Origin: Candidatus Parcubacteria bacterium
Lineage (GTDB): Bacteria > Patescibacteriota > Minisyncoccia > UBA6257 > HR35
Direction: 5' to 3'
Length of the DNA: 64,000 bases
Assembly (NCBI GenBank): GCA_026004495.1
Contig: BPJG01000001.1
Span: 144,582-208,581 of the forward strand
Below the pieces are notes generated by a model, which was given only the letters and a program-made list of their open reading frames with translations, searched no databases and had not been told where the DNA came from. A program made the translations under genes and the position numbers. Shown here one piece after another: positions 8,544 to 43,646 of the stretch. The stretch's first letter is position 1. Every line of letters begins with the position of its first letter.

Positions 8544-8618
8544 GGGGGAGTAGCTCCTAATTGGTAGAGCGGCGGTCTCCAAAACCGCAGGTTGTAGGTT
8601 CGAATCCTACCTCCCCCG
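8544..8618 (+). tRNA. tRNA-Trp (anticodon CCA)
   Basis: Cloverleaf by eye: acceptor GGGGGAG/CTCCCCC, anticodon loop CTCCAAA, T-loop TTCGAAT. No encoded CCA. Confidence 0.8.
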
Positions 8619-8679
8619 AAAATTGATATTTAAAAAAATATTTTTTTAATTTTTAATATTTAAAATTAGGTCAAATTAA

Positions 8680-8763
8680 GTCCGGGTGGCGAAATTGGAA
8701 GACGCGCTACCTTGAGGGGGTAGTGGGAGTAATCCCGTGTGGGTTCAAATCCCACCCCGGACA
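8680..8763 (+). tRNA. tRNA-Leu (anticodon GAG), long variable arm
   Basis: Acceptor GTCCGGG/CCCGGAC, anticodon stem CTACC/GGTAG with loop TTGAGGG, long variable arm, T-loop TTCAAAT. Confidence 0.75.
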
Positions 8764-8803
8764 AATAAATATTAATAGAAAAATTATATAAAAAATAAAT
8801 ATA

Positions 8804-8876
8804 AGCCCCCAACAGGACTCGAACCTGTAACCTTGTGGTCCGAAGCCACACGCTCTTCCAATTGAGCTATGGGGGC
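8804..8876 (-). tRNA. tRNA-Arg (anticodon TCG)
   Basis: The reverse complement folds as acceptor GCCCCCA/TGGGGGC, anticodon loop CTTCGGA, T-loop TTCGAGT. Confidence 0.7.
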
Positions 8877-8918
8877 TATTACTATTACTAGCTTTACTAA
8901 AATTTATTAAATCTAAAT

Positions 8919-8991
8919 TGGGCGGGAGAGGATTCGAACCTCTGGCCTTCTCGACGTCAACGAGACGCTCTACCAACTGAGCTACCCGCCC
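8919..8991 (-). tRNA. tRNA-Val (anticodon GAC)
   Basis: The reverse complement folds as acceptor GGGCGGG/CCCGCCC, anticodon loop TTGACGT, T-loop TTCGAAT. Confidence 0.75.
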
Positions 8992-33109: not shown

Positions 33110-34924
33110 ATGAAAATAAAAGAAATAACAAAAAAAGTAATAATTATAATTTTGTTTTTAGCTATTATTTCATCAAATTTTATATTTAAAAAAAACTTAC
33201 TGGCAAATTTAATTTATTTTTATCCCCAAAATTGTTTAGGTAGTTTTATTAATCCTGAAAAAGCCCAAGGAAAACCTGAAGTTGATAGTCCAGATTTAAT
33301 AAATGAATCAAATTCTGCTGTTTATTTAGGTGGTTTTAAAGAAATTTATTGTGGAAATTTTCAAGGACCAGAGGCTAAAGGAGACATTAAAAAAATAACA
33401 TTACATTTTAATTGGATTATCACTAAAGAAAAAAATGGGGATTCGATAATTAAACCAACCTCAACAGAATCAAATATTTTAGAAAAAATAATTCCTTCAA
33501 AAACAATAGAGTTTGAATTTAATACTTCTCCAACTCCAACACCAGAAACAACCTCAACAATTGAATCAACATCAAGCCCAGAAATAAATTTTTTATTCAA
33601 CAAAGATCAACTTCTGCGTAGTTCTGCATTATCTTCTGTTAGTTCTGCGTCAGTTCTGCGTAGTTCTGCGTTTGATCTGCGTGAGTCTGCTTTAATAAAA
33701 TTTGTCTTTGCTCAAGAAACAACAACATCGCTTGAAACAACACCAGCTACAGAATCAAACTCAGAATCAACCACTATTAATACCCAAACCGAAACAGCAA
33801 CCCAAACTATAAATGAAACTCAACAATCTTTACCAGAAAATCAATCAGCAGAGCTATCAACAACTTCTACTTCAACAAATAATCAAATAGAAAATATCAC
33901 TTCTTCTACGACTACTCAAACATTAACCACCGCTTCACCAGCTGAAAATCAAAATGAAACTAATACAACGACAACAATTTTAGAAACAACCACAACACCA
34001 ATTTTAATACCTCCTAAAACTTTATTTGAAATTCACTATACCTTAGATGGTCAAAATTGGAATTATTTAGGTAATATAAATGAAAATAATTGGCAAAATA
34101 TTTCTTTTGAAATTCCAGTAAATAATTGGCTTGATATATCAAAAATTCAAATTAAGATAAATTCTTTACCAGAAACTGATTATTATCTTTATTTAGAATC
34201 AATGTGGTTTGAGATTGAATATGAAGAAAAAAACGAAGAAGATGAAGTTTTTGATATTTTAGGGAATTATAAGACAAATATCATTGTTTCTAAAGAGAGT
34301 TTCGAGCTTGATGAAATTCCTTACTTTGAATTTAAGATTTCTAAAAACAATAATGAAAATGAAATTGACATTTCTGAAATTAAATCAATTAATATAAAAG
34401 TTTTTAATTCCAATAAGGAGCTAATTTTCCAAACCAATAAGCTGGATTTTGATTATGATTCCAAAAATTTTTCTTTTAAATTAGATAATTTTCTAAAATT
34501 ATATCCAAATAGTTATAGATTAAAAATTTATTTAAATAAATATTTAGCCGGAGAATATGATTTCAATTGGGGAGGAAATATTGTTAAAGAAGAAAAAATT
34601 GACTCAGATAAAGAATTAATATTTATTGATTTTAATAATAAAAATCAAATATGGAATTTAACAAAAAGTGATATAAATAGTTTTGAAAAGATTTGGGAAG
34701 GCAAAGAATTTCCAAATTATAAAATTATTGATAGCTATCTAATTTTAAATTTTTCAGAAACAATTTTAGGCTATGACTTATTAAGTAAAACATCTTTTAC
34801 TTATACCTTTGAAAAATCAACTTCAACAATAATTAATATCAACAATAAAAAATATTCAATTTCACCAAATTTTGATTTTTTAGAAATTAATGAATCTCCA
34901 GAAAATGAAAATCAAGTTTTCTAA
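33110..34924 (+). CDS. secreted S/T-rich surface protein (604 aa)
   Basis: Signal peptide, a long T/S/N-rich linker that is probably glycosylated, and a C-terminal globular region. Overlaps the start of the giant gene by 35 nt. Confidence 0.55.
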   Translation: MKIKEITKKVIIIILFLAIISSNFIFKKNLLANLIYFYPQNCLGSFINPEKAQGKPEVDSPDLINESNSAVYLGGFKEIYCGNFQGPEAKGDIKKITLHFNWIITKEKNGDSIIKPTSTESNILEKIIPSKTIEFEFNTSPTPTPETTSTIESTSSPEINFLFNKDQLLRSSALSSVSSASVLRSSAFDLRESALIKFVFAQETTTSLETTPATESNSESTTINTQTETATQTINETQQSLPENQSAELSTTSTSTNNQIENITSSTTTQTLTTASPAENQNETNTTTTILETTTTPILIPPKTLFEIHYTLDGQNWNYLGNINENNWQNISFEIPVNNWLDISKIQIKINSLPETDYYLYLESMWFEIEYEEKNEEDEVFDILGNYKTNIIVSKESFELDEIPYFEFKISKNNNENEIDISEIKSINIKVFNSNKELIFQTNKLDFDYDSKNFSFKLDNFLKLYPNSYRLKIYLNKYLAGEYDFNWGGNIVKEEKIDSDKELIFIDFNNKNQIWNLTKSDINSFEKIWEGKEFPNYKIIDSYLILNFSETILGYDLLSKTSFTYTFEKSTSTIININNKKYSISPNFDFLEINESPENENQVF

Positions 34925-37900
34925 AAAAGCCTTTGTAAAGGTAAGCAACTTAATTTTAACTCTAATTCTATTAATTTCGCTAAATTTTTCTTATTTTATT
35001 TTAAGTAGTTTTAAATTATCAAAACAAAAATTTAAAGATAAACTTGTTAAAGAAGCGCAGGCAGTTTCTTTTTTCCATCCCACTAATGGCATCTTAGTTA
35101 CTGGTTCAGAAACAGCTTTAAGTAATTCTAATGTTGGCTCATGGCGAGGTTTATTAGGTAATGACTCAAATTATTGGCAAGTAGCCAGAGTTAATCCTGG
35201 AGGTTTAAATCTTTTAATTTATTTTGATGGAGTTGAACTTTATGGAGCTAATAAAATGATTATTACAATTGAAGATTCAAATATTATTACTGGTGATGCT
35301 TATATTCATCAAATTTGTGATTGGGTTGATTCAACTGGAGTTGATAATCCTGCTGATACTGATTGTACTGGTGGTGGTTGGCGAACATTAAATCCAAGAA
35401 AAACAACCTATACTAATATTGCTGATACTATTAGATCTTATGAAATATATAATGGTTATTTTTCAACCAGAGCAGCCTCTCCAGGAACGGTAATTAATAC
35501 TCCTTTATCTAATTTTATTGAACCAACAAATAAAAGAGTCTTAATAAGAGTGTATTCAACTGTCAATTCAACAACTAATTTAAGAATTGATTGGGCGCAA
35601 ATTGAAGTCGCTATTGATCCCTTTTATCAAAATGCTGGTATAACCTTAACTTCAGCTGGAGCAACAACTAACTTTATCTCTGACCTAATTGGTGCTCCTT
35701 ATCCTGGACCCAATAGTTCTGATAATGTTAAATTAACAATTCCTATGCCAGCAGCTAATCAACCAATTGATTTCTATTTCTCTTTTAAAAATGTCAAAAC
35801 TTATACTGGAATGAATACTATTTTAGTTGTTCCTGAAATTTGTGTTTCTAATACAGCTCTAACTTTTGATGTTTATTTGTGGAATTTTACTACTAATTCT
35901 TGGACTAAAAGACCAGGAACAGCTATTACTGGAACTGCTTGTACTACTGATACTGAATATGGTTTTGCTTTTAATCAATATACTATATCTGGTTTTAATT
36001 TAGATGATTATATTTCTAATGGTGAAATTAGAGTTAGGTTTTTAACCAATAATCCAGCTACTGTTTATAATATCCAACTTGATAGAATTTATATCTTTTT
36101 AGGTTCAGTTAATACTAATTCCTCAGCCTGTGAAATATCTTGGGGAACAGGAACAGCTTCAGATTGTGTTAATACCAGAGATATGAACGAAGGTTTAACT
36201 GCTAATCCAACAACTCTTACTTGGCAAACAGGAGCAGTAATTGAATATCCTGCTGGCTATCATCCCTTAGATAACGATGATGATATTACTAATGGTGAAT
36301 ATGCTTTTTCTTCTAATTTAGATTTTCCAGTAACTTTATCTTCTAATATGTCAGTAACTGCTATTCATTATGCTGGCAAATATAGATCAAATGCAACTTC
36401 AATTACCGTTAAACCATCAATTAGAGTTTATGGAGGTTTACCTGGTATTTATAGGAAAGCAGCAGGTTCTGGTTGGCGTGATACTCCCGGATCTGGTACT
36501 AATGCAGCTACTACTTATTCTTATTTTGATACCTTTAGAGTTCCTGAACTTCAAGTTGATGCACCAGATCATATTGATACAGTTAATAATCGAATGAATA
36601 TGAGATTAAGAACTTCAGCTTCAACTAATACTGCTGGTGGTGTAACTAGAGATTGGGATTTTGCAATGATGAGTATTAGATGGGTGGAAGAACCAAATAG
36701 AGTAACAATTACTAAAAATTTCCACCCCACTAACGGTATTTTAGTTACTGGTTCAGAAACAGCTTTAAGTAATTCTAATGTTGGCTCATGGCGAGGTTTA
36801 TTAGGTAATGACTCAAATTATTGGCAAGTAGCCAGAGTTAATCCTGGAGGTTTAAATCTTTTAATTTATTTTGATGGAGTTGAACTTTATGGAGCTAATA
36901 AAATGATTATTACAATTGAAGATTCAAATATTATTACTGGTGATGCTTATATTCATCAAATTTGTGATTGGGTTGATTCAACTGGAGTTGATAATCCTGC
37001 TGATACTGATTGTACTGGTGGTGGTTGGCGAACATTAAATCCAAGAAAAACAACCTATACTAATATTGCTGATACTATTAGATCTTATGAAATATATAAT
37101 GGTTATTTTTCAACCAGAGCAGCCTCTCCAGGAACGGTAATTAATACTCCTTTATCTAATTTTATTGAACCAACAAATAAAAGAGTCTTAATAAGAGTGT
37201 ATTCAACTGTCAATTCAACAACTAATTTAAGAATTGATTGGGCGCAAATTGAAGTCGCTATTGATCCCTTTTATCAAAATGCTGGTATAACCTTAACTTC
37301 AGCTGGAGCAACAACTAACTTTATCTCTGACCTAATTGGTGCTCCTTATCCTGGACCCAATAGTTCTGATAATGTTAAATTAACAATTCCTATGCCAGCA
37401 GCTAATCAACCAATTGATTTCTATTTCTCTTTTAAAAATGTCAAAACTTATACTGGAATGAATACTATTTTAGTTGTTCCTGAAATTTGTGTTTCTAATA
37501 CAGCTCTAACTTTTGATGTTTATTTGTGGAATTTTACTACTAATTCTTGGACTAAAAGACCAGGAACAGCTATTACTGGAACTGCTTGTACTACTGATAC
37601 TGAATATGGTTTTGCTTTTAATCAATATACTATATCTGGTTTTAATTTAGATGATTATATTTCTAATGGTGAAATTAGAGTTAGGTTTTTAACCAATAAT
37701 CCAGCTACTGTTTATAATATCCAACTTGATAGAATTTATATCTTTTTAGGTTCAGTTAATACTAATTCCTCAGCCTGTGAAATATCTTGGGGAACAGGAA
37801 CAGCTTCAGATTGTGTTAATACCAGAGATATGAACGAAGGTTTAACTGCTAATCCAACAACTCTTACTTGGCAAACAGGAGCAGTAATTGAATATCCTGC

Positions 37901-38828
37901 TGGCTATCATCCCTTAGATAACGATGATGATATTACTAATGGTGAATATGCTTTTTCTTCTAATTTAGATTTTCCAGTAACTTTATCTTCTAATATGTCA
38001 GTAACTGCTATTCATTATGCTGGCAAATATAGATCAAATGCAACTTCAATTACCGTTAAACCATCAATTAGAGTTTATGGAGGTTTACCTGGTATTTATA
38101 GGAAAGCAGCAGGTTCTGGTTGGCGTGATACTCCCGGATCTGATACTAATGCAGCTACTACTTATTCTTATTTTGATACCTTTAGAGTTCCTGAACTTCA
38201 AGTTGATGCACCAGATCATATTGATACAGTTAATAATCGAATGAATATGAGATTAAGAACTTCAGCTTCAACTAATACTGCTGGTGGTGTAACTAGAGAT
38301 TGGGATTTTGCAATGATGAGTATTAGATGGGTGGAAAGACCATTTGCACCACCAACAATTACTTGCTCTTTTTCAGCAACTTCAACTTCTTTTTCAAGTT
38401 TATCTCCTTCAGCTGTTTCTACTTCTTCACCTGATATAACAATTACCGTTACCTCTTCTGCTGGTTTTATAATTTCTGTTAATAATGCTGGAGATGGAAC
38501 TAACCCAGGTCTTTATAAATCAACTGCGCCAACATATTTAATTCCTTCACCCGATTCTTCATTTTCTGCAACTGCAACTTTATTTGCTGGCACAGATGGG
38601 TATGGTATTCAAGCAACAACGACTAATTCAAATATAAATATTAATGTAAGGTATAATGTTAGTGGATATACTGTTGGAGGTTTGACAACAACAACCATTA
38701 CTTTGGCAAGCTCTTCAGCTTCTGTTTCTTCGGCTCAAATTACTATTAAACACAAAGCATCTATTTCAGCCTTAGCACCAATAGGAAATTATCAGGATAC
38801 AATAACATATAGTTGCACAAGCCCGTAG
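34890..38828 (+). CDS. giant surface protein (1312 aa) with internal 549-aa tandem duplication and C-terminal SCPU/CsuA-B-like beta-sandwich domain
   Basis: N-terminal TM/signal. Two near-identical 549-aa units. The C-terminal ~160 aa resemble the stand-alone protein at 39426..40085 and pilin-like SCPU domains (see findings). Confidence 0.7.
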   Translation: MNLQKMKIKFSKKAFVKVSNLILTLILLISLNFSYFILSSFKLSKQKFKDKLVKEAQAVSFFHPTNGILVTGSETALSNSNVGSWRGLLGNDSNYWQVARVNPGGLNLLIYFDGVELYGANKMIITIEDSNIITGDAYIHQICDWVDSTGVDNPADTDCTGGGWRTLNPRKTTYTNIADTIRSYEIYNGYFSTRAASPGTVINTPLSNFIEPTNKRVLIRVYSTVNSTTNLRIDWAQIEVAIDPFYQNAGITLTSAGATTNFISDLIGAPYPGPNSSDNVKLTIPMPAANQPIDFYFSFKNVKTYTGMNTILVVPEICVSNTALTFDVYLWNFTTNSWTKRPGTAITGTACTTDTEYGFAFNQYTISGFNLDDYISNGEIRVRFLTNNPATVYNIQLDRIYIFLGSVNTNSSACEISWGTGTASDCVNTRDMNEGLTANPTTLTWQTGAVIEYPAGYHPLDNDDDITNGEYAFSSNLDFPVTLSSNMSVTAIHYAGKYRSNATSITVKPSIRVYGGLPGIYRKAAGSGWRDTPGSGTNAATTYSYFDTFRVPELQVDAPDHIDTVNNRMNMRLRTSASTNTAGGVTRDWDFAMMSIRWVEEPNRVTITKNFHPTNGILVTGSETALSNSNVGSWRGLLGNDSNYWQVARVNPGGLNLLIYFDGVELYGANKMIITIEDSNIITGDAYIHQICDWVDSTGVDNPADTDCTGGGWRTLNPRKTTYTNIADTIRSYEIYNGYFSTRAASPGTVINTPLSNFIEPTNKRVLIRVYSTVNSTTNLRIDWAQIEVAIDPFYQNAGITLTSAGATTNFISDLIGAPYPGPNSSDNVKLTIPMPAANQPIDFYFSFKNVKTYTGMNTILVVPEICVSNTALTFDVYLWNFTTNSWTKRPGTAITGTACTTDTEYGFAFNQYTISGFNLDDYISNGEIRVRFLTNNPATVYNIQLDRIYIFLGSVNTNSSACEISWGTGTASDCVNTRDMNEGLTANPTTLTWQTGAVIEYPAGYHPLDNDDDITNGEYAFSSNLDFPVTLSSNMSVTAIHYAGKYRSNATSITVKPSIRVYGGLPGIYRKAAGSGWRDTPGSDTNAATTYSYFDTFRVPELQVDAPDHIDTVNNRMNMRLRTSASTNTAGGVTRDWDFAMMSIRWVERPFAPPTITCSFSATSTSFSSLSPSAVSTSSPDITITVTSSAGFIISVNNAGDGTNPGLYKSTAPTYLIPSPDSSFSATATLFAGTDGYGIQATTTNSNININVRYNVSGYTVGGLTTTTITLASSSASVSSAQITIKHKASISALAPIGNYQDTITYSCTSP
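35075..38368. repeat. direct tandem duplication, 2 x 1647 bp, near-identical, inside the giant gene
   Basis: The landmark GTTACTGGTTCAGAAACAGC occurs at 35097 and 36744, an offset of 1647. The translated copies differ at only a few residues, e.g. SGTNAAT vs SDTNAAT. Confidence 0.9.
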
Positions 38829-38880
38829 TTAGTAGCTAGTATCTAGTAGCTAGTAAGTAGTAGCTAAAATCTAGTAGTTA
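38826..38880. repeat. TAG/CTAG-rich repeat R1 (TAGTAGCTAGTATCTAGTAGCTAGTAAGTAGTAGCT)
   Basis: Lies directly after the stop of the giant gene. Related copies are at 39255..39333 (inverted) and 40083..40130 (direct). Confidence 0.7.
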
Positions 38881-38886
38881 AATAAA

Positions 38887-39135
38887 ATGAAAACAAAATC
38901 TTTTAAGGAATTAATAGTTTGGCAAAGAGCAAAAGAATTAACAATAGAAGCTTATAAATTAACATCAAAATTTCCAAAATCAGAACTTTTTGGCTTAACA
39001 AGTCAAATGAGAAGATCGGCAATTTCTATTTCTTCAAATATTGCTGAAAGTTATAATCGATTTCATTCAAAAGAGAAAAAACAATTTTTAGCTGTTGCTT
39101 TTAGCTCCGGAGCAGAATTAGAAAGTCAGATTTAA
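38887..39135 (+). pseudogene. four-helix-bundle protein of the 23S rRNA intervening-sequence / Avd-like family, truncated by in-frame TAA
   Basis: Family pattern WQRAKEL...FPK.E.FGLTSQMRRSAISI.SNIAE...R....E...FL..A.SS..ELE.Q stops at ELESQI-TAA. The same frame continues IAKSL..., which is where family members continue (LIIAK.LGY...). Confidence 0.6.
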
Positions 39136-39254
39136 ATTGCTAAATCATTAATTTCCAGATTTAGATTATTCAAAAGTAGAAACTCTTATTATGGATATTA
39201 TGAAAATGTTAAATAAAAATTATTAATAAAAAATAAAAAAAATCAAAAAACAAC

Positions 39255-39333
39255 CTACTATTAGATTCTATTTACTAATTTCTAAATTCTATCCTGTATC
39301 TACTAGATCCTACTTACTAGCTTCTAGATTCTG
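39255..39333. repeat. TAG-rich repeat R2, inverted relative to R1/R3 (..CTACTAGATCCTACTTACTAGCTTCTAGATTCTG)
   Basis: Its reverse complement contains GCTAGTAAGTAG and CTAGTAG, as in R1. Confidence 0.65.
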
Positions 39334-39425
39334 TTCAATATTGTGGGAAAAATTTTTTGATGAAATATGATATAATTAAAAAATGAGTTTTCCTGTAGTG
39401 AAACTATAGTTTTTGCTACGGGGGA

Positions 39426-40085
39426 TTGGTCGAAATTAATAAAAAAAATAAAATGAAAAAAGTAAATACATTTCAAAGCTTGATCATTTTGATAAGCATA
39501 TTTTTAGCTATTTATTTTATTTCTGAGTTGTTTATTATACCATCGTCTATTTTAAAGGCTCAAACTAATGTTACTGTTTCAGCAACTGTGACAACAAGTG
39601 TTACTTGTAATTTTTCAACAACAACTACTAATTTTGGTACTATCGATACAAGTGCCGTCTATACTTCTTTGCCTAATGTAACAGCAACTGTTTCTTGTAA
39701 TCCAGCTGCAGGATGTAAGGTAGAAATTAACGATCAAGGATCTGGATCTCAGCCAGGTTTATGGAATTCAACAGCTTCTCATTTAATTCCTTCACCAGAT
39801 TCTGCATTCTCAGCAACTGCAAATTTAGTGGCTGGAACAGAAGGTTATGGAATTCAAGCAGCAACAACTTCAGCTGGATCTGGCGCAACTCTTTCTTTAA
39901 ATTCGAGATATATCCAAACTGGAAATACCGTTGGAGGATTAACAACAACAACTATTCAATTAGCCTCTTCGACATCACCAATATCAAACAGAGAAATTGT
40001 TGTTACTCATAAAGCAGCTGTTTCAAGTTTAACTCCAGCAGGTAATTATCAAGATACAATAACTTATAGTTGTTCATCGAATTAG
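39426..40085 (+). CDS. secreted SCPU/CsuA-B-like beta-sandwich protein (pilin-like), paralog of the giant protein C-terminus
   Basis: Signal peptide. NVTVSATVTTSVTCNF...NFGTID (cf. SCPU TFQVSATVxASCxV...FGTYD) and C-terminal AGNYQDTITYSCSS (cf. AGSYSDTVTVTVTY). Aligns with giant-protein residues ~1150-1312 (GL..STA..LIPSPDS.FSATA.L.AGT.GYGIQA.TT...GGLTTTTI.LASS...KA..S.L.P.GNYQDTITYSC). Confidence 0.55.
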   Translation: MVEINKKNKMKKVNTFQSLIILISIFLAIYFISELFIIPSSILKAQTNVTVSATVTTSVTCNFSTTTTNFGTIDTSAVYTSLPNVTATVSCNPAAGCKVEINDQGSGSQPGLWNSTASHLIPSPDSAFSATANLVAGTEGYGIQAATTSAGSGATLSLNSRYIQTGNTVGGLTTTTIQLASSTSPISNREIVVTHKAAVSSLTPAGNYQDTITYSCSSN

Positions 40086-40130
40086 TAGCTAATAGTTAGA
40101 AGCTAGTATCTAGAAGCTAGTATCTAGTAA
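40083..40130. repeat. TAG-rich repeat R3 (TAGTAGCTAATAGTTAGAAGCTAGTATCTAGAAGCTAGTATCTAGTAA)
   Basis: Same orientation and motif family as R1. Lies immediately after the stop of the SCPU-like gene. Confidence 0.65.
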
Positions 40131-40160
40131 TTAAAAACAATTTTTATAAAATTTAAAACA

Positions 40161-41075
40161 ATGAAAAATTATAAAAATAATTCAATAATTTACTTTCTTT
40201 TAGTTTCTATTTTCTATTTACTAGCTACTAATTTATTGGCTACTAATTTTGTTTTTGCCTTAACTGTTGGGCCAGCGAAATTAGAATTTATAACCGATCC
40301 AGGCCAAACTTTAGAATTTAGTTTATTTGTGAGAAACGATAGCGATTACGATAATAAATATCAAATTATTGTTGAAGGATTTACTGAAGAAGGAGGCGAA
40401 AGAAAATATATTGAAAATCCACCAGAAGTAACTTGGGTTGAAACACCAAAAGATATTTTTCTCAAAGCCAAAGAAGATAAAAATGTTCCAATAAAAATTA
40501 ATGTTCCTAAAGATGCTCCACCAGGAGGTCATTTTTTAGTTTTATGGGTAAGCACAAAGCCTGAAGGAGGTCAAGTAGCAATTGTCTCAAGAGTTGGCTC
40601 TTTAGTTTTTATTAATGTTTCAGGAAATGCAATTTATAAAGCTTATATCAGTGAATTAAAAGCTCCAAAATTTGCTTGGAATTTTCCAGTAAAATTTTCT
40701 TATGTAATTAAAAATGAAGGTAACACTTATATCACACCAAAAGGAGATATTGAAATTAAAAATATTTTTGGCAGATTAATTGCTGATTTACCAATAAATC
40801 CAAGAGAGCTTCAAGTTTTACCTAATACTTCAAAAAATTTTGAGCAAGAATGGAAAGCAAATTTTGCTCTTGGTATTTATAAAGCTATTTTTAATTTAGA
40901 ATATGCTAATTCAAGAGATTCTTTAACTCATTGGCTTATTTTTATTGATCTCAAAGCCCTGATAATAATTTTACTTATTCTTATTTTTGCAATCTTCTTC
41001 TTACCAAGATTGATTAAAAAATATAATGAATGGATAATTAAAAAGTATACGCAAAATAAAAATATAAATGAATGA
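40161..41075 (+). CDS. secreted beta-sandwich (Ig/CARDB/DUF916-like) protein with C-terminal TM anchor
   Basis: Signal peptide, about 250 aa predicted all-beta (TVGPAKLEFITDPGQTLEFSLFVRNDS...), C-terminal hydrophobic helix plus a basic tail. The family assignment is tentative. Confidence 0.45.
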   Translation: MKNYKNNSIIYFLLVSIFYLLATNLLATNFVFALTVGPAKLEFITDPGQTLEFSLFVRNDSDYDNKYQIIVEGFTEEGGERKYIENPPEVTWVETPKDIFLKAKEDKNVPIKINVPKDAPPGGHFLVLWVSTKPEGGQVAIVSRVGSLVFINVSGNAIYKAYISELKAPKFAWNFPVKFSYVIKNEGNTYITPKGDIEIKNIFGRLIADLPINPRELQVLPNTSKNFEQEWKANFALGIYKAIFNLEYANSRDSLTHWLIFIDLKALIIILLILIFAIFFLPRLIKKYNEWIIKKYTQNKNINE

Positions 41076-42124
41076 ATTTAAGAATAATTTCAATAATTTT
41101 TTTAATATTTGTTTCTATATTTATATTATTTTATTCTTTTACTTATCTTAAATCTGCTTCGATAAATATTAAAGCTTTTGTGCCTGGTATTTGTGGAAAT
41201 AATTTTAAAGAACCAGGAGAAGAATGTGATGGCCCTGATTTAGGAGGTCAAAGTTGTGTTTCTTTAGGTTATTCAGGCGGAACCTTATCTTGTAATTCTA
41301 ATTGTACTTTTAATACTTCTCAATGTACCATTTCTCCGCCAAGTAGTGGAGGAGGTGGGGGAGGCAGTGGATCGTACATTCCCTCTTATGGAACAGTTAT
41401 TCTTTCAGGAAGGGCTCAACCGAATAGTGATGTTACTTTAATGTCTGATGGTCAAATTAAAGCTGTTATCAAGGTTGATGCTGATGGAAAATTTAGATTT
41501 ACTATTTCAAATTTAACTCCAGGAAATTACATATTTACCTTATATGCTGAAGATATTGAAGGAAGAAGAACAAGTTTGCATTCAATTCCAACAGTAGTTA
41601 CTGCAGGACTGACAATTGAAATAGGCAGTATTTTTCTTTCACCAACAATTGACATTGATAAAACTCAAGTTAGGCGAGGAGAGATCTTAAGAATTTTTGG
41701 CCAAACAGCTCCTGAATCTAATGTTTTAATTGTTGTTTCTTCCGAAAAAGAGTTATATTTTCAAACTCAAGCAGAAAAAGATGGAAGTTATTTATATGCT
41801 TTCAATACTATTGACTTAGATTATGGCCAACATTTAACAAAATCAAGATCAATTTTAGCTAATCAATTAGTTAGTCCTTTTTCAAGATCTTTAAACTTTC
41901 AAGTCTCGACAAGTTCAATAGCTAAAAAACCAACAAAATGTCCATTAAAAGGAGATTTAAATAATGATTGTCGAGTAAATTTAATTGATTTTTCAATTGC
42001 CGCTTATTGGTATAAAAGAAAATTAAGTCCAAGTTTTACTAAAATTGAAAAAGAAAATTTAAATGGAGATGGAAAGGTCGATTTAGTCGATTTTAGTATT
42101 ATGGCTTATTGGTGGACGGGGTAA
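41072..42124 (+). CDS. dockerin-domain protein with N-terminal anchor, Cys-rich module, Gly linker and Ig-like domains
   Basis: The C-terminus has two canonical dockerin Ca-binding repeats: GDLNNDCRVNLIDFSIAAYWYKRK and NLNGDGKVDLVDFSIMAYWW. The N-terminal region carries 8 Cys (CGNNFKEPGEECDG...SCVS...SCNSNCTF..SQC) followed by GGGGGGSG. Confidence 0.7.
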   Translation: MNLRIISIIFLIFVSIFILFYSFTYLKSASINIKAFVPGICGNNFKEPGEECDGPDLGGQSCVSLGYSGGTLSCNSNCTFNTSQCTISPPSSGGGGGGSGSYIPSYGTVILSGRAQPNSDVTLMSDGQIKAVIKVDADGKFRFTISNLTPGNYIFTLYAEDIEGRRTSLHSIPTVVTAGLTIEIGSIFLSPTIDIDKTQVRRGEILRIFGQTAPESNVLIVVSSEKELYFQTQAEKDGSYLYAFNTIDLDYGQHLTKSRSILANQLVSPFSRSLNFQVSTSSIAKKPTKCPLKGDLNNDCRVNLIDFSIAAYWYKRKLSPSFTKIEKENLNGDGKVDLVDFSIMAYWWTG

Positions 42125-42127
42125 TAG

Positions 42128-42224
42128 CCACACGAATGCCAACGAATCAAATAAGCACACGAATGGCAACGAATTATATAATATTTGTGTGCAATTCGTG
42201 TTAATACACGAATGGCGATGAATT
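42128..42224. repeat. repeat family 2, left copy: tandem CACACGAATGGCAACGAAT units plus an internal inverted copy
   Basis: CACACGAATGCCAACGAAT, CACACGAATGGCAACGAAT, and GTGTGCAATTCGTGTTAATACACGAATGGCGATGAAT. Confidence 0.7.
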
Positions 42225-42275: not shown

Positions 42276-42641
42276 ATGAACGTAAATATTAATAAAAACC
42301 AGAGTAGAAATATTTTGTATAAAGAGCTTTCTTGCAAGCTACAAGATATCTTTTTTAAAATAAGAAATGAGTTGGGTAGTGGTCATAAAGAATCAATTTA
42401 TCAAAATGCCCTGGCTAAAGAATTAGAAAAGAATAAAATAAACTTTCAAAGAGAATATCCGGTGAAAATATATTCAAAAGAAGGTTATTTCTTAGGATTA
42501 TATAAACCTGATTTTGTAATAGATAATAAGATAATAATAGAAGTTAAAGCGAAAAGTTTTTTGTCAAAGCAAGAAAGGATAATTATTTATGATTATTTAA
42601 AAAATAGCGAGTTTGAAGTCGCTTATATTGTAAATTTTTAA
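42276..42641 (+). CDS. GxxExxY protein (PD-(D/E)XK nuclease-like small protein)
   Basis: The motif GHKESIY (G-x-x-E-x-x-Y) is followed by L(G/Y)KPDFVIDNKIIIEVKA, a D...E.K core. Size 121 aa. Confidence 0.65.
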   Translation: MNVNINKNQSRNILYKELSCKLQDIFFKIRNELGSGHKESIYQNALAKELEKNKINFQREYPVKIYSKEGYFLGLYKPDFVIDNKIIIEVKAKSFLSKQERIIIYDYLKNSEFEVAYIVNF

Positions 42642-42773: not shown

Positions 42774-43646
42774 ATGTCTAGGATTTATATACAAAGTGAT
42801 AAAAAAATGAATACTGATAAAATTATTATACCTATCTATCTTGACACTGAGGGAGAATCAATTAATGCTTTTGAAGTTAAAATTAAAATCTCTGACAATT
42901 TAATTTTTAGAGATTATTTAGAGAAAGATTCAATTATTAGTTATTGGATTGAAAGACCCCATGTAGTAGAGCGGAGCTCACTACCTGGCAAACCCAATGT
43001 AGTAGAAAAAAGTTCACCACAAGGTTCTACTACTGAGAACTTGTCTCGTAGTGAACCACAAGGTTCTACTACCGAGATAAATTTTTCTGGAATTACTCCG
43101 GGAGGTTATATTGGTAAAAAAGCTTTATTAGTAAATTTAATTTTTGAAGCTAAACAAAGTGGTTCAGCTTTCATTGAAATCTTGCCTTCGTCCAATGTTT
43201 TGTTAAATGATAGCTTAGGAACAAAAGCAAAATTAATAACTGAGAAATATAGTTTTATTTTAAACCGAACTCAGGAGAAGAAAATAATAATTCAAGATAA
43301 TTACCCACCCGAGCCATTTAAGGTTTATCTTCAAAAAGATAAAGAAATTTTTAATAATAAATATTATCTTGTTTTTTATGCCCAAGACAAACAATCAGGA
43401 ATATCTTATTATGAAGTTAAAGAAGGTGATTATGATTTTGAAAAAGCTTCATCACCATATCTTTTAAAAGATCAATCTTTAAGAAGTTATGTCTATATTA
43501 AAGCAGTTGATCGAGCAGGAAATGAACGAATTGAGATTTTTAAACCTCGAAAATTATTTTTGTTAGAGGAAATTTTATCCTTGATTTTTTTTATTGTTAT
43601 AATATTCTTAATATTTCTAATTTTCAATAAAAAATTTAAGAAATAA
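42774..43646 (+). CDS. membrane-anchored cohesin-like domain protein (second copy) with in-frame repeat insertion
   Basis: The N-terminal beta domain resembles the 30238..31677 protein (IIIPIYLDTEGESINAFEVKIKISDNLIF...EINFSGITPGGYIGKKALLVNLIFEAK...AFIEIL). There is a C-terminal Ig-like region plus a TM anchor. An inserted segment RPHVVERSSLPGKPNVVEKSSPQGSTTENLSRSEPQGSTTE is encoded by short direct and inverted repeats. Confidence 0.5.
   Translation: MSRIYIQSDKKMNTDKIIIPIYLDTEGESINAFEVKIKISDNLIFRDYLEKDSIISYWIERPHVVERSSLPGKPNVVEKSSPQGSTTENLSRSEPQGSTTEINFSGITPGGYIGKKALLVNLIFEAKQSGSAFIEILPSSNVLLNDSLGTKAKLITEKYSFILNRTQEKKIIIQDNYPPEPFKVYLQKDKEIFNNKYYLVFYAQDKQSGISYYEVKEGDYDFEKASSPYLLKDQSLRSYVYIKAVDRAGNERIEIFKPRKLFLLEEILSLIFFIVIIFLIFLIFNKKFKK

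Follow-up and report, generated by a model that had tools for sequence, protein, structure and literature searches.

An old pair of near-identical units in a predicted pilus adhesin of a Candidatus Parcubacteria bacterium was probably homogenised recently by recombination

We analysed 64,000 nt of contig BPJG01000001.1 from a Candidatus Parcubacteria bacterium (assembly GCA_026004495.1, positions 144,582 to 208,581 of the forward strand). This whole stretch is called the window, and all positions refer to it. It harbors a gene for a predicted surface adhesin that contains a long direct repeat and lies in an operon with pilin-like and other genes (Table 1). The adhesin is built of a signal/anchor region, unit 1, a linker of 10 residues, unit 2 and a C-terminal pilin-type immunoglobulin (Ig) domain, in this order. 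In a preliminary description of the same DNA the gene was called giant. Its product of 1312 aa is only large, and the open reading frame (ORF) upstream of it is a separate gene, as is also the case in the relatives L001 (516 aa), L004 (522 aa) and L012 (654 aa). Relatives with L numbers are loci that were fetched from genome and metagenome collections. Translation of the adhesin possibly starts at an ATG at 34905, giving MKIKFSKKAF, which agrees with the N-termini of relatives. As read from the translation, the N-terminus consists of basic and hydrophobic stretches followed by AQA, and the protein is presumably secreted and located at the surface.

A direct-repeat search of the window revealed two copies with a start-to-start spacing of 1647 nt, corresponding to 549 codons, both in frame inside the ORF. 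Tandem Repeats Finder did not report this repeat because its period ceiling was 500, and a fixed-offset comparison was used as well. This comparison showed about 100% identity within the repeat and about 25–35% beyond it, and defined a near-identical core of 1618 nt (35072-36689 versus 36719-38336) with five differences and 99.7% identity. A repeat of such length and identity is not attributable to chance. The near-perfect, in-frame, head-to-tail repeat of the preliminary description was thus confirmed. There the 1647-nt copies had been taken to be alike up to 38368, but similarity stops at 38336 and the last 29 nt or so of each copy are dissimilar: the linker DNA at 36690-36718 (GAACCAAATAGAGTAACAATTACTAAAAAT) differs at 19 of 29 positions from 38337-38365, the sequence at the same offset after unit 2. 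A third copy of the unit was not found anywhere in the 64-kb window.

The five core differences are T/C, T/C, C/T, C/T and G/A. Four of them are synonymous third-position differences within the first 22 nt (35078, 35087, 35090 and 35093), and the fifth, at residue 475 of the unit, is non-synonymous and the only one in the unit interior (36496/38143). At third positions, four of nine codons differ at the 5' edge versus none of 530 in the interior (Fisher test, p=4e-8; p=3e-7 for all positions). Since a simple recent duplication would leave the edges identical too, this distribution points to an old edge beside a freshly converted interior.

The linker between the units gave information on the age of the pair. 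It is conserved in two-unit relatives whose units are only 40–60% identical to those of the window. The window linker reads EPNRVTIT, and the corresponding sequences are EPNRLTLQ in L012, EPNRRTLQ in P0035, EPSRRTLN in P0034, SKRRTLS in P0033, ETNRRTLI in L003, ETNRTTIQ in L019 and EPRRVTET in L004 (P numbers denote proteins from the HMMER census below). The first 12 nt of the L012 linker are identical to the window, and 12 identical nt were also found in L013. Two linkers from different proteins have on average 4.2 of 11 residues in common, and a linker shares 0–2 of 11 residues with the connector that follows unit 2 in its own protein. L003, L018 and L019 have unrelated C-terminal domains and the same type of linker. 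Because the linker is conserved across distant two-unit proteins, the junction appears to have been inherited from long ago and not to have arisen recently in this genome. Judged from these alignments, the two-unit layout with its linker is old.

To what extent relatives share the two-unit layout depended on the search. An exact look-up of the 1312-aa protein in the protein collection was empty, and the best match among contigs of GTDB representatives was 70% identical. A word-index protein search with one unit returned 31 proteins, the best with 89% identity and none with two full units. A lineage-specific duplication, first suggested by these one-unit matches, was overturned by tblastn and by an exhaustive HMMER search. 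The tblastn search with the whole protein against the fetched loci revealed two-unit genes in L003, L004, L006, L007, L012, L018 and L019, and contigs of L009, L013 and L020 that end or begin at or within the unit. The HMMER census over 1.84 billion representative proteins gave 135 matches, about 45 of them with two full units, and P0039 has four. Some seemingly one-unit proteins start with the tail of a preceding unit and are therefore truncated at contig ends; contigs broken at or inside the unit also occur for P0012, P0013, P0017, P0025 and P0038. A warning of assembly trouble in the preliminary description was hence justified. From these sequences we concluded that two units are the norm of the family. 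The repeat had been taken for a very recent expansion, a view that is not compatible with a linker orthologous in distant relatives and with two units as the norm; the recent event appears to be the homogenisation of the units.

One-unit forms (L001, L002, which equals L010, L011, P0003, P0005, P0010, P0019 and P0022) are scattered among the two-unit forms. L012 with two units and L002 with one unit share 97% of their nucleotides and are thus 3% apart. The variation in copy number that the preliminary description had expected was seen among the relatives, with one, two or four units.

A neighbour-joining tree placed unit 1 as sister to unit 2 of its own protein in most lineages. For L018 and P0036, it joined first unit with first unit and second unit with second unit. 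Across the two-unit relatives, identity between the units of a protein spans 28% to 100% as a continuum. No unit pair in the sample lies between 83% and 99%, and this gap may reflect either assembly failure in that range or real dynamics in which pairs lock or escape. Perfectly identical cores were found in four other lineages: L012 (1622 nt), L004 (1622 nt), L021 (1553 nt) and L022 (1601 nt). Where checked (L012 and L004), the core boundaries lie at corresponding positions of the unit. The units of L003 form a mosaic, with 81% identity overall, 62–96% per 90 nt and exact runs of up to 64 nt. Two hallmarks of concerted evolution were thus found. By linker conservation and the tree, the duplication predates the separation of the species, yet units within a genome are the closest kin. 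In addition, homogenisation was independent in L012, L004, L021 and L022 and left a mosaic in L003. The alignments indicate that the same homogenisation took place independently in at least five lineages.

The structure of the adhesin was predicted by AlphaFold2 (AF2). The model of both units (pLDDT 87.4, pTM 0.83), in which the linker is confident, suggests that they form a defined six-domain body rather than beads on a string. The preliminary description had regarded the repeat as an exposed stalk; the compact beta-sandwich body of the model does not resemble a spacer of variable length. In the model of unit 2 with the C-terminal domain (pLDDT 86.6, pTM 0.75), three beta-sandwich domains are followed by an Ig-like one. 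The beta-sandwiches of each unit are modelled as CBM-like jelly rolls. Foldseek matches comprised reelin repeats, CBM22/CBM51 tandems, the EngBF CBM, MAM domains, SGBP-B and phage tail/host-specificity proteins. We propose that the unit pair is a ligand-binding head. Across the units of the family no significant full-domain match to Pfam or NCBIfam was found. The Pfam Kelch_4 match present in each unit is short and partial (22 residues) and was set aside as uninformative.

The paired module is also present within a type IV pilus cluster (L021:6001-9750, with T2SSE, T2SSF, N_methyl pilins, PilM and PilO), and fusions with Peptidase_C25 and with DUF2341 and Laminin_G_3 were seen as well (L007:9914-15469 and P0034). 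Considering these varied contexts, the unit pair is a portable cassette.

A link to pili came from the C-terminal domain. The Pam pilus, described in 2026, is a donor-strand-exchange filament of bacteria of the Candidate Phyla Radiation (CPR), and its chaperones are anchored in the membrane; how it binds the host is yet to be explained (bioRxiv 10.64898/2026.03.03.709456). The tip pilin PamT consists of the pilin domain only, and no adhesin of the present kind was described in that work (bioRxiv 10.64898/2026.03.03.709456). The NCBIfam model NF058581 (CPR_Pam_pilin_C) has a cut-off of 55 bits. The C-terminal domains of the relatives L004 and L015 exceed it with 60.9 and 80.7 bits, and so does the next gene downstream of the adhesin in L004 (80.4 bits), whose operon is syntenic with that of the window. 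The C-terminal domain of the window protein is probably a diverged Pam-type pilin domain, and the protein a pilus adhesin. The paired modules would then form the head that binds a ligand, and the C-terminal pilin domain would attach them to the fibre of a Pam-type pilus built by donor-strand exchange. A position at the pilus tip is conceivable, as for FimH or PapG on chaperone-usher pili.

Taken together, we favour the explanation that an ancient pair of units, ancestral for a family found mostly in ultra-small (CPR/Patescibacteria-type) bacteria, was recently homogenised by recombination, and that the protein is a pilus-associated adhesin. We assign this explanation as a whole a probability of about 0.72. 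Homologous recombination between the units would have homogenised the window pair. The likely route is gene conversion of the RecA type, for instance when a break in one unit is repaired from the other; cycles of unequal crossover from two to three and back to two units would have the same outcome. The converted tract, limited by the end of homology, would have stopped short of the 5' edge by about 22 nt, so that the old synonymous differences were kept there, and the Gly to Asp mutation would have arisen afterwards. The same recombination could delete one unit and give rise to the one-unit relatives. Such a loss would be irreversible, because the linker goes with the deleted unit. The scattered one-unit forms fit repeated contraction.

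Several observations weigh against this explanation. All five differences lie at most 22 nt from the left edge or at most 194 nt from the right edge of the repeat. Short reads anchored in the unique flanks could phase only such edge differences, so that some doubt attaches to the identity of the interior and to the number of copies. Collapse of the assembly graph or popping of bubbles could account for part of the perfect interior identity in the window, L012, L004, L021 and L022, more than two copies could be present in reality, and the one-unit relatives might in part be collapsed assemblies. The tree of units is a simple neighbour-joining tree without support values. For the adhesin part, the TM-scores of the Foldseek matches are 0.1–0.3, a likeness at domain level only. 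With NF058581 the C-terminal domain of the window protein scores 11.4 bits and its 219-aa neighbour 22.1 bits, both below the cut-off, and the operon proteins gave no significant match to a chaperone family.

The first of these points lead to an alternative that accepts a real and old pair, with copies that diverge by about 1–3% or number at least three, the exact figures being due to collapse of the short-read graph. It modifies the favoured explanation and does not replace it. That all five differences are within read length of unique flanks would agree with it, as would exactly zero interior differences in four other assemblies and the lack of pairs with 83–99% identity in the sample, which is expected if such pairs assemble badly. 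A collapse needs high identity anyway, however, and pairs with up to 81% nucleotide identity assemble separately, as in L003, so that the qualitative conclusion holds. We regard this alternative as possible, although somewhat unlikely.

If a segment of 1647 nt had been duplicated de novo and very recently in a formerly one-unit gene, a core with 99.7% identity would be explained. The closest relative in hand (L001/P0001, 90% identical in amino acids) and all 13 best word-index matches have one unit, and a 7-nt microhomology, TCTTTTT, is present at 35067 and 38367, 3300 nt apart. Yet the junction is not built from the present flanks (19 of 29 nt differ). The microhomology predicts a period of 1650 instead of 1647 and the junction TITCSF|FHP, which is not the one present; the linker is one codon shorter than predicted, and a microhomology-mediated origin was rejected. 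Furthermore, the linker is orthologous in L012 and L013 (12 identical nt) and in proteins with only 40–60% identity, synonymous divergence is nearly saturated at the 5' edge and absent from the interior, and the relatives are not uniformly single-copy, two units being the norm. A fresh duplication is therefore very unlikely.

Recurrent independent duplications in many lineages, each giving a similar linker in the absence of gene conversion, would likewise make units 1 and 2 sisters within most proteins. The linker and the connector between unit and C-terminal domain also have a loose E-x-P...T-I-T pattern in common in the window clade. However, the linkers of the window, L012 and L004 share only 1–2 of 11 residues with their own connectors and resemble the linkers of other species, and the linker type is the same in L003, L018 and L019 despite their unrelated C-terminal domains. 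The first and second units of L018 and P0036 are orthologous, and the patchwork in L003 (62–96% per 90 nt, exact runs to 64 nt) is of the kind that conversion tracts leave. We thus consider repeated duplication to be highly improbable as well.

An outright artefact, with one true unit and a second copy made by the assembler, is the least credible alternative: near-identical repeats of 1.6 kb are known to cause misassembly, contigs of relatives break at unit edges and the window protein has no entry in the protein collection, but reads must span the unique 29-nt linker and the edge variants that join unit end to unit start, the same type of junction is present in more than 45 independent assemblies including the close relatives L012, L013 and L009, and the repeat is in the middle of the 64-kb window, away from contig ends. 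The preliminary description had named this possibility, and the orthologous linker in independent assemblies makes it unlikely.

As a mechanism, recombination among the tandem repeats of surface proteins is textbook knowledge. In streptococcal alpha C/Rib (Alp), enterococcal Esp and staphylococcal Aap/SasG, tandem repeats are identical at the DNA level, and recombination homogenises them and alters their copy number between strains. These proteins have many short repeats of about 80–130 aa that form a spacer of variable length. The adhesin of the window resembles them in having in-frame (near-)identical DNA repeats that recombine and vary in copy number in a protein presumed to be at the surface. 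Many short repeats forming a spacer were not found in it. Instead, two very large three-domain units of 539 aa are joined by a dedicated conserved linker, the two-unit state is kept across a deep family (about 45 representative clusters), and the units appear to be a binding head and not a stalk.

Bacterial tuf genes and rRNA operons are examples of concerted evolution of duplicated genes by gene conversion. As in these systems, the old duplicates are closer within a genome than between genomes, a sharp boundary is seen at the end of homology, and some pairs escape homogenisation after diverging. Unlike in these systems, the partners are adjacent blocks in one reading frame, which makes an in-frame deletion of a unit possible.

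With FimH, PapG and the Pam pilus, the adhesin would share an N-terminal binding part followed by a C-terminal incomplete-Ig pilin domain (both predicted here), and an operon with a small pilin and a candidate chaperone that has a predicted C-terminal membrane helix. The predicted binding part comprises about 1090 aa and six beta-sandwich domains, compared to one lectin domain in FimH and PapG. In contrast to the Pam proteins, the pilin domains of the window are too diverged to pass NF058581, and the paired module is also found within a cluster for type IV pili and in a fusion with a C25 peptidase.

A seemingly new duplication is, according to the favoured explanation, an ancient conserved pair that was recently homogenised. 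The family is widespread in ultra-small bacteria, and its probable tie to the Pam pilus makes it a concrete candidate adhesin. Identical repeats of 1.6 kb break or collapse short-read assemblies, and gene models of the family are therefore often truncated. A more far-reaching idea, which we consider rather doubtful, is that the paired six-domain module is the host-recognition head of Pam-type (elsewhere type IV) pili in ultra-small episymbiotic bacteria and that gene conversion keeps its halves in lock-step. If this were true, a change of specificity in one half would spread at once to the other half, pairs would be locked near 100% identity unless they escaped, after which they would diverge freely, and the family would be a natural system for host-range evolution in CPR bacteria.

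Table 1. Features of the adhesin gene and the neighbouring genes in the window.
Feature	Position	Strand	Description
Separate upstream gene, 604 aa	33110..34924	+	Secreted, Ser/Thr-rich product; overlaps the adhesin start by 35 nt
Adhesin gene, 1312 aa	34890..38828	+	From the ORF list; orthologues in L001, L002, L012, L004 and others
N-terminal signal/anchor region, aa 1-61	34890..35072	+	Basic, then hydrophobic stretch, ...KEAQAVSF before unit 1; predicted from the translation
Unit 1, aa 62-600	35073..36689	+	539 aa; three jelly-roll beta-sandwich domains in the AF2 model
Diverged 5' unit edge (first 9 codons)	35073..35099	+	Four synonymous differences versus 36720-36746
Sole interior difference	36496	+	G, versus A at 38143; Gly to Asp
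Inter-unit linker EPNRVTITKN, aa 601-610	36690..36719	+	Unique sequence, 29-30 nt
Unit 2, aa 611-1149	36720..38336	+	
C-terminal Ig-like pilin-type domain, aa 1150-1312	38337..38825	+	55% identical to the neighbouring 219-aa pilin; all-beta in the AF2 model
Pilin-like gene, 219 aa	39426..40085	+	Signal-like N-terminus, one pilin domain; weak SCPU match; syntenic in L004
Candidate membrane-anchored chaperone, 304 aa	40161..41075	+	Ig-like N-terminal part, hydrophobic C-terminal stretch; weak WxLIP_PGBD and fn3_5 matches; syntenic in L001 and L004; putative role
Gene for a 350-aa protein	41072..42124	+	Big_6 Ig-like and dockerin-like domains; conserved in the operon
Gene for a 290-aa protein	42774..43646	+	OmpL47-type barrel domain, hydrophobic C-terminal stretch; syntenic with a 288-aa gene of L004

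For the 219-aa pilin, a search against PDB sequences gave no real match. The 290-aa protein may anchor the pilus. Within the adhesin C-terminal domain, 89 nt (38536-38624) are 85% identical to 39781-39869 in the pilin gene, the protein domains being 55% identical. This stretch is either a motif under strong conservation (LIPSPDS.FSATA..AGT.GYGIQA) or the trace of a short conversion event between the paralogues. In the upstream 604-aa gene, a Ser/Thr-rich stretch (33545-34015) does not align with L001; it contains a relatively G+C-rich 10/21-nt tandem repeat (TTCTGCGTAG, about six copies) at 33612-33694.

Compared to the syntenic locus of L001, in which the adhesin stop codon is directly followed by the promoter-like sequence of the pilin gene, the window has an insertion of about 500 nt (38829-39334). 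It carries a truncated gene for a 23S-rRNA-IVP/four-helix-bundle protein (38887-39135; Pfam E=4e-27) and is flanked by arrays of a TAG-rich 14-nt repeat in inverted orientation (38826-38885 and about 39255-39334). The insertion resembles a small mobile element of the IVS type. The 14-nt repeat (TAGAAGCTAGTATC) forms a third array immediately behind the 219-aa pilin gene and its stop codon (40079-40150). No IVP gene lies beside this array, which may be a remnant on its own or else a target site. Prompted by the Avd-like gene next to the adhesin, we also considered a diversity-generating retroelement, with its template and variable repeats (TR/VR) of about 100–150 nt, and rejected it: the repeat in the adhesin gene is 1.6 kb long and its differences are not adenine-specific. 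The four-helix-bundle gene next to the adhesin matched 23S_rRNA_IVP at 4e-27 and bAvd at 6e-4 only. No repeat pair of TR/VR size was found within 32-45 kb, except for the one between the paralogous pilin domains, and the scanned ORFs of this stretch, to which the scan was confined, contain no reverse transcriptase domain.

Between the genes for the 350-aa and the 290-aa protein, a GxxExxY/PD-(D/E)XK gene is present (42276-42641; Pfam E=9e-25), preceded by a tandem repeat of two 27-nt copies (42129-42181). At this site L001 has a gap of about 280 nt between the flanking operon genes, in which no gene was called.

Two clear members of the family are on contigs with unexpected labels: L003 on a 309-kb contig labelled 'uncultured Gammaproteobacteria' (locus GC 37%), and L007 on a 646-kb contig labelled 'Candidatus Omnitrophota' (locus GC 43%). 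Either the module reaches beyond CPR bacteria or the bins are mislabelled. The genes at L006:9818-13156 and L016:9890-11806 contain 22 and 14 in-frame TGA codons, respectively, and no TAA or TAG. These TGA codons are at tryptophan positions that are invariant in the family (GSW, QICDW, GGGWR, YFWDR), which implies that UGA is read as Trp in both lineages. The window adhesin has TGG at the same positions and reads normally in table 11. Elsewhere in the window, four tRNA genes, two per strand, are clustered at 8544-8991.

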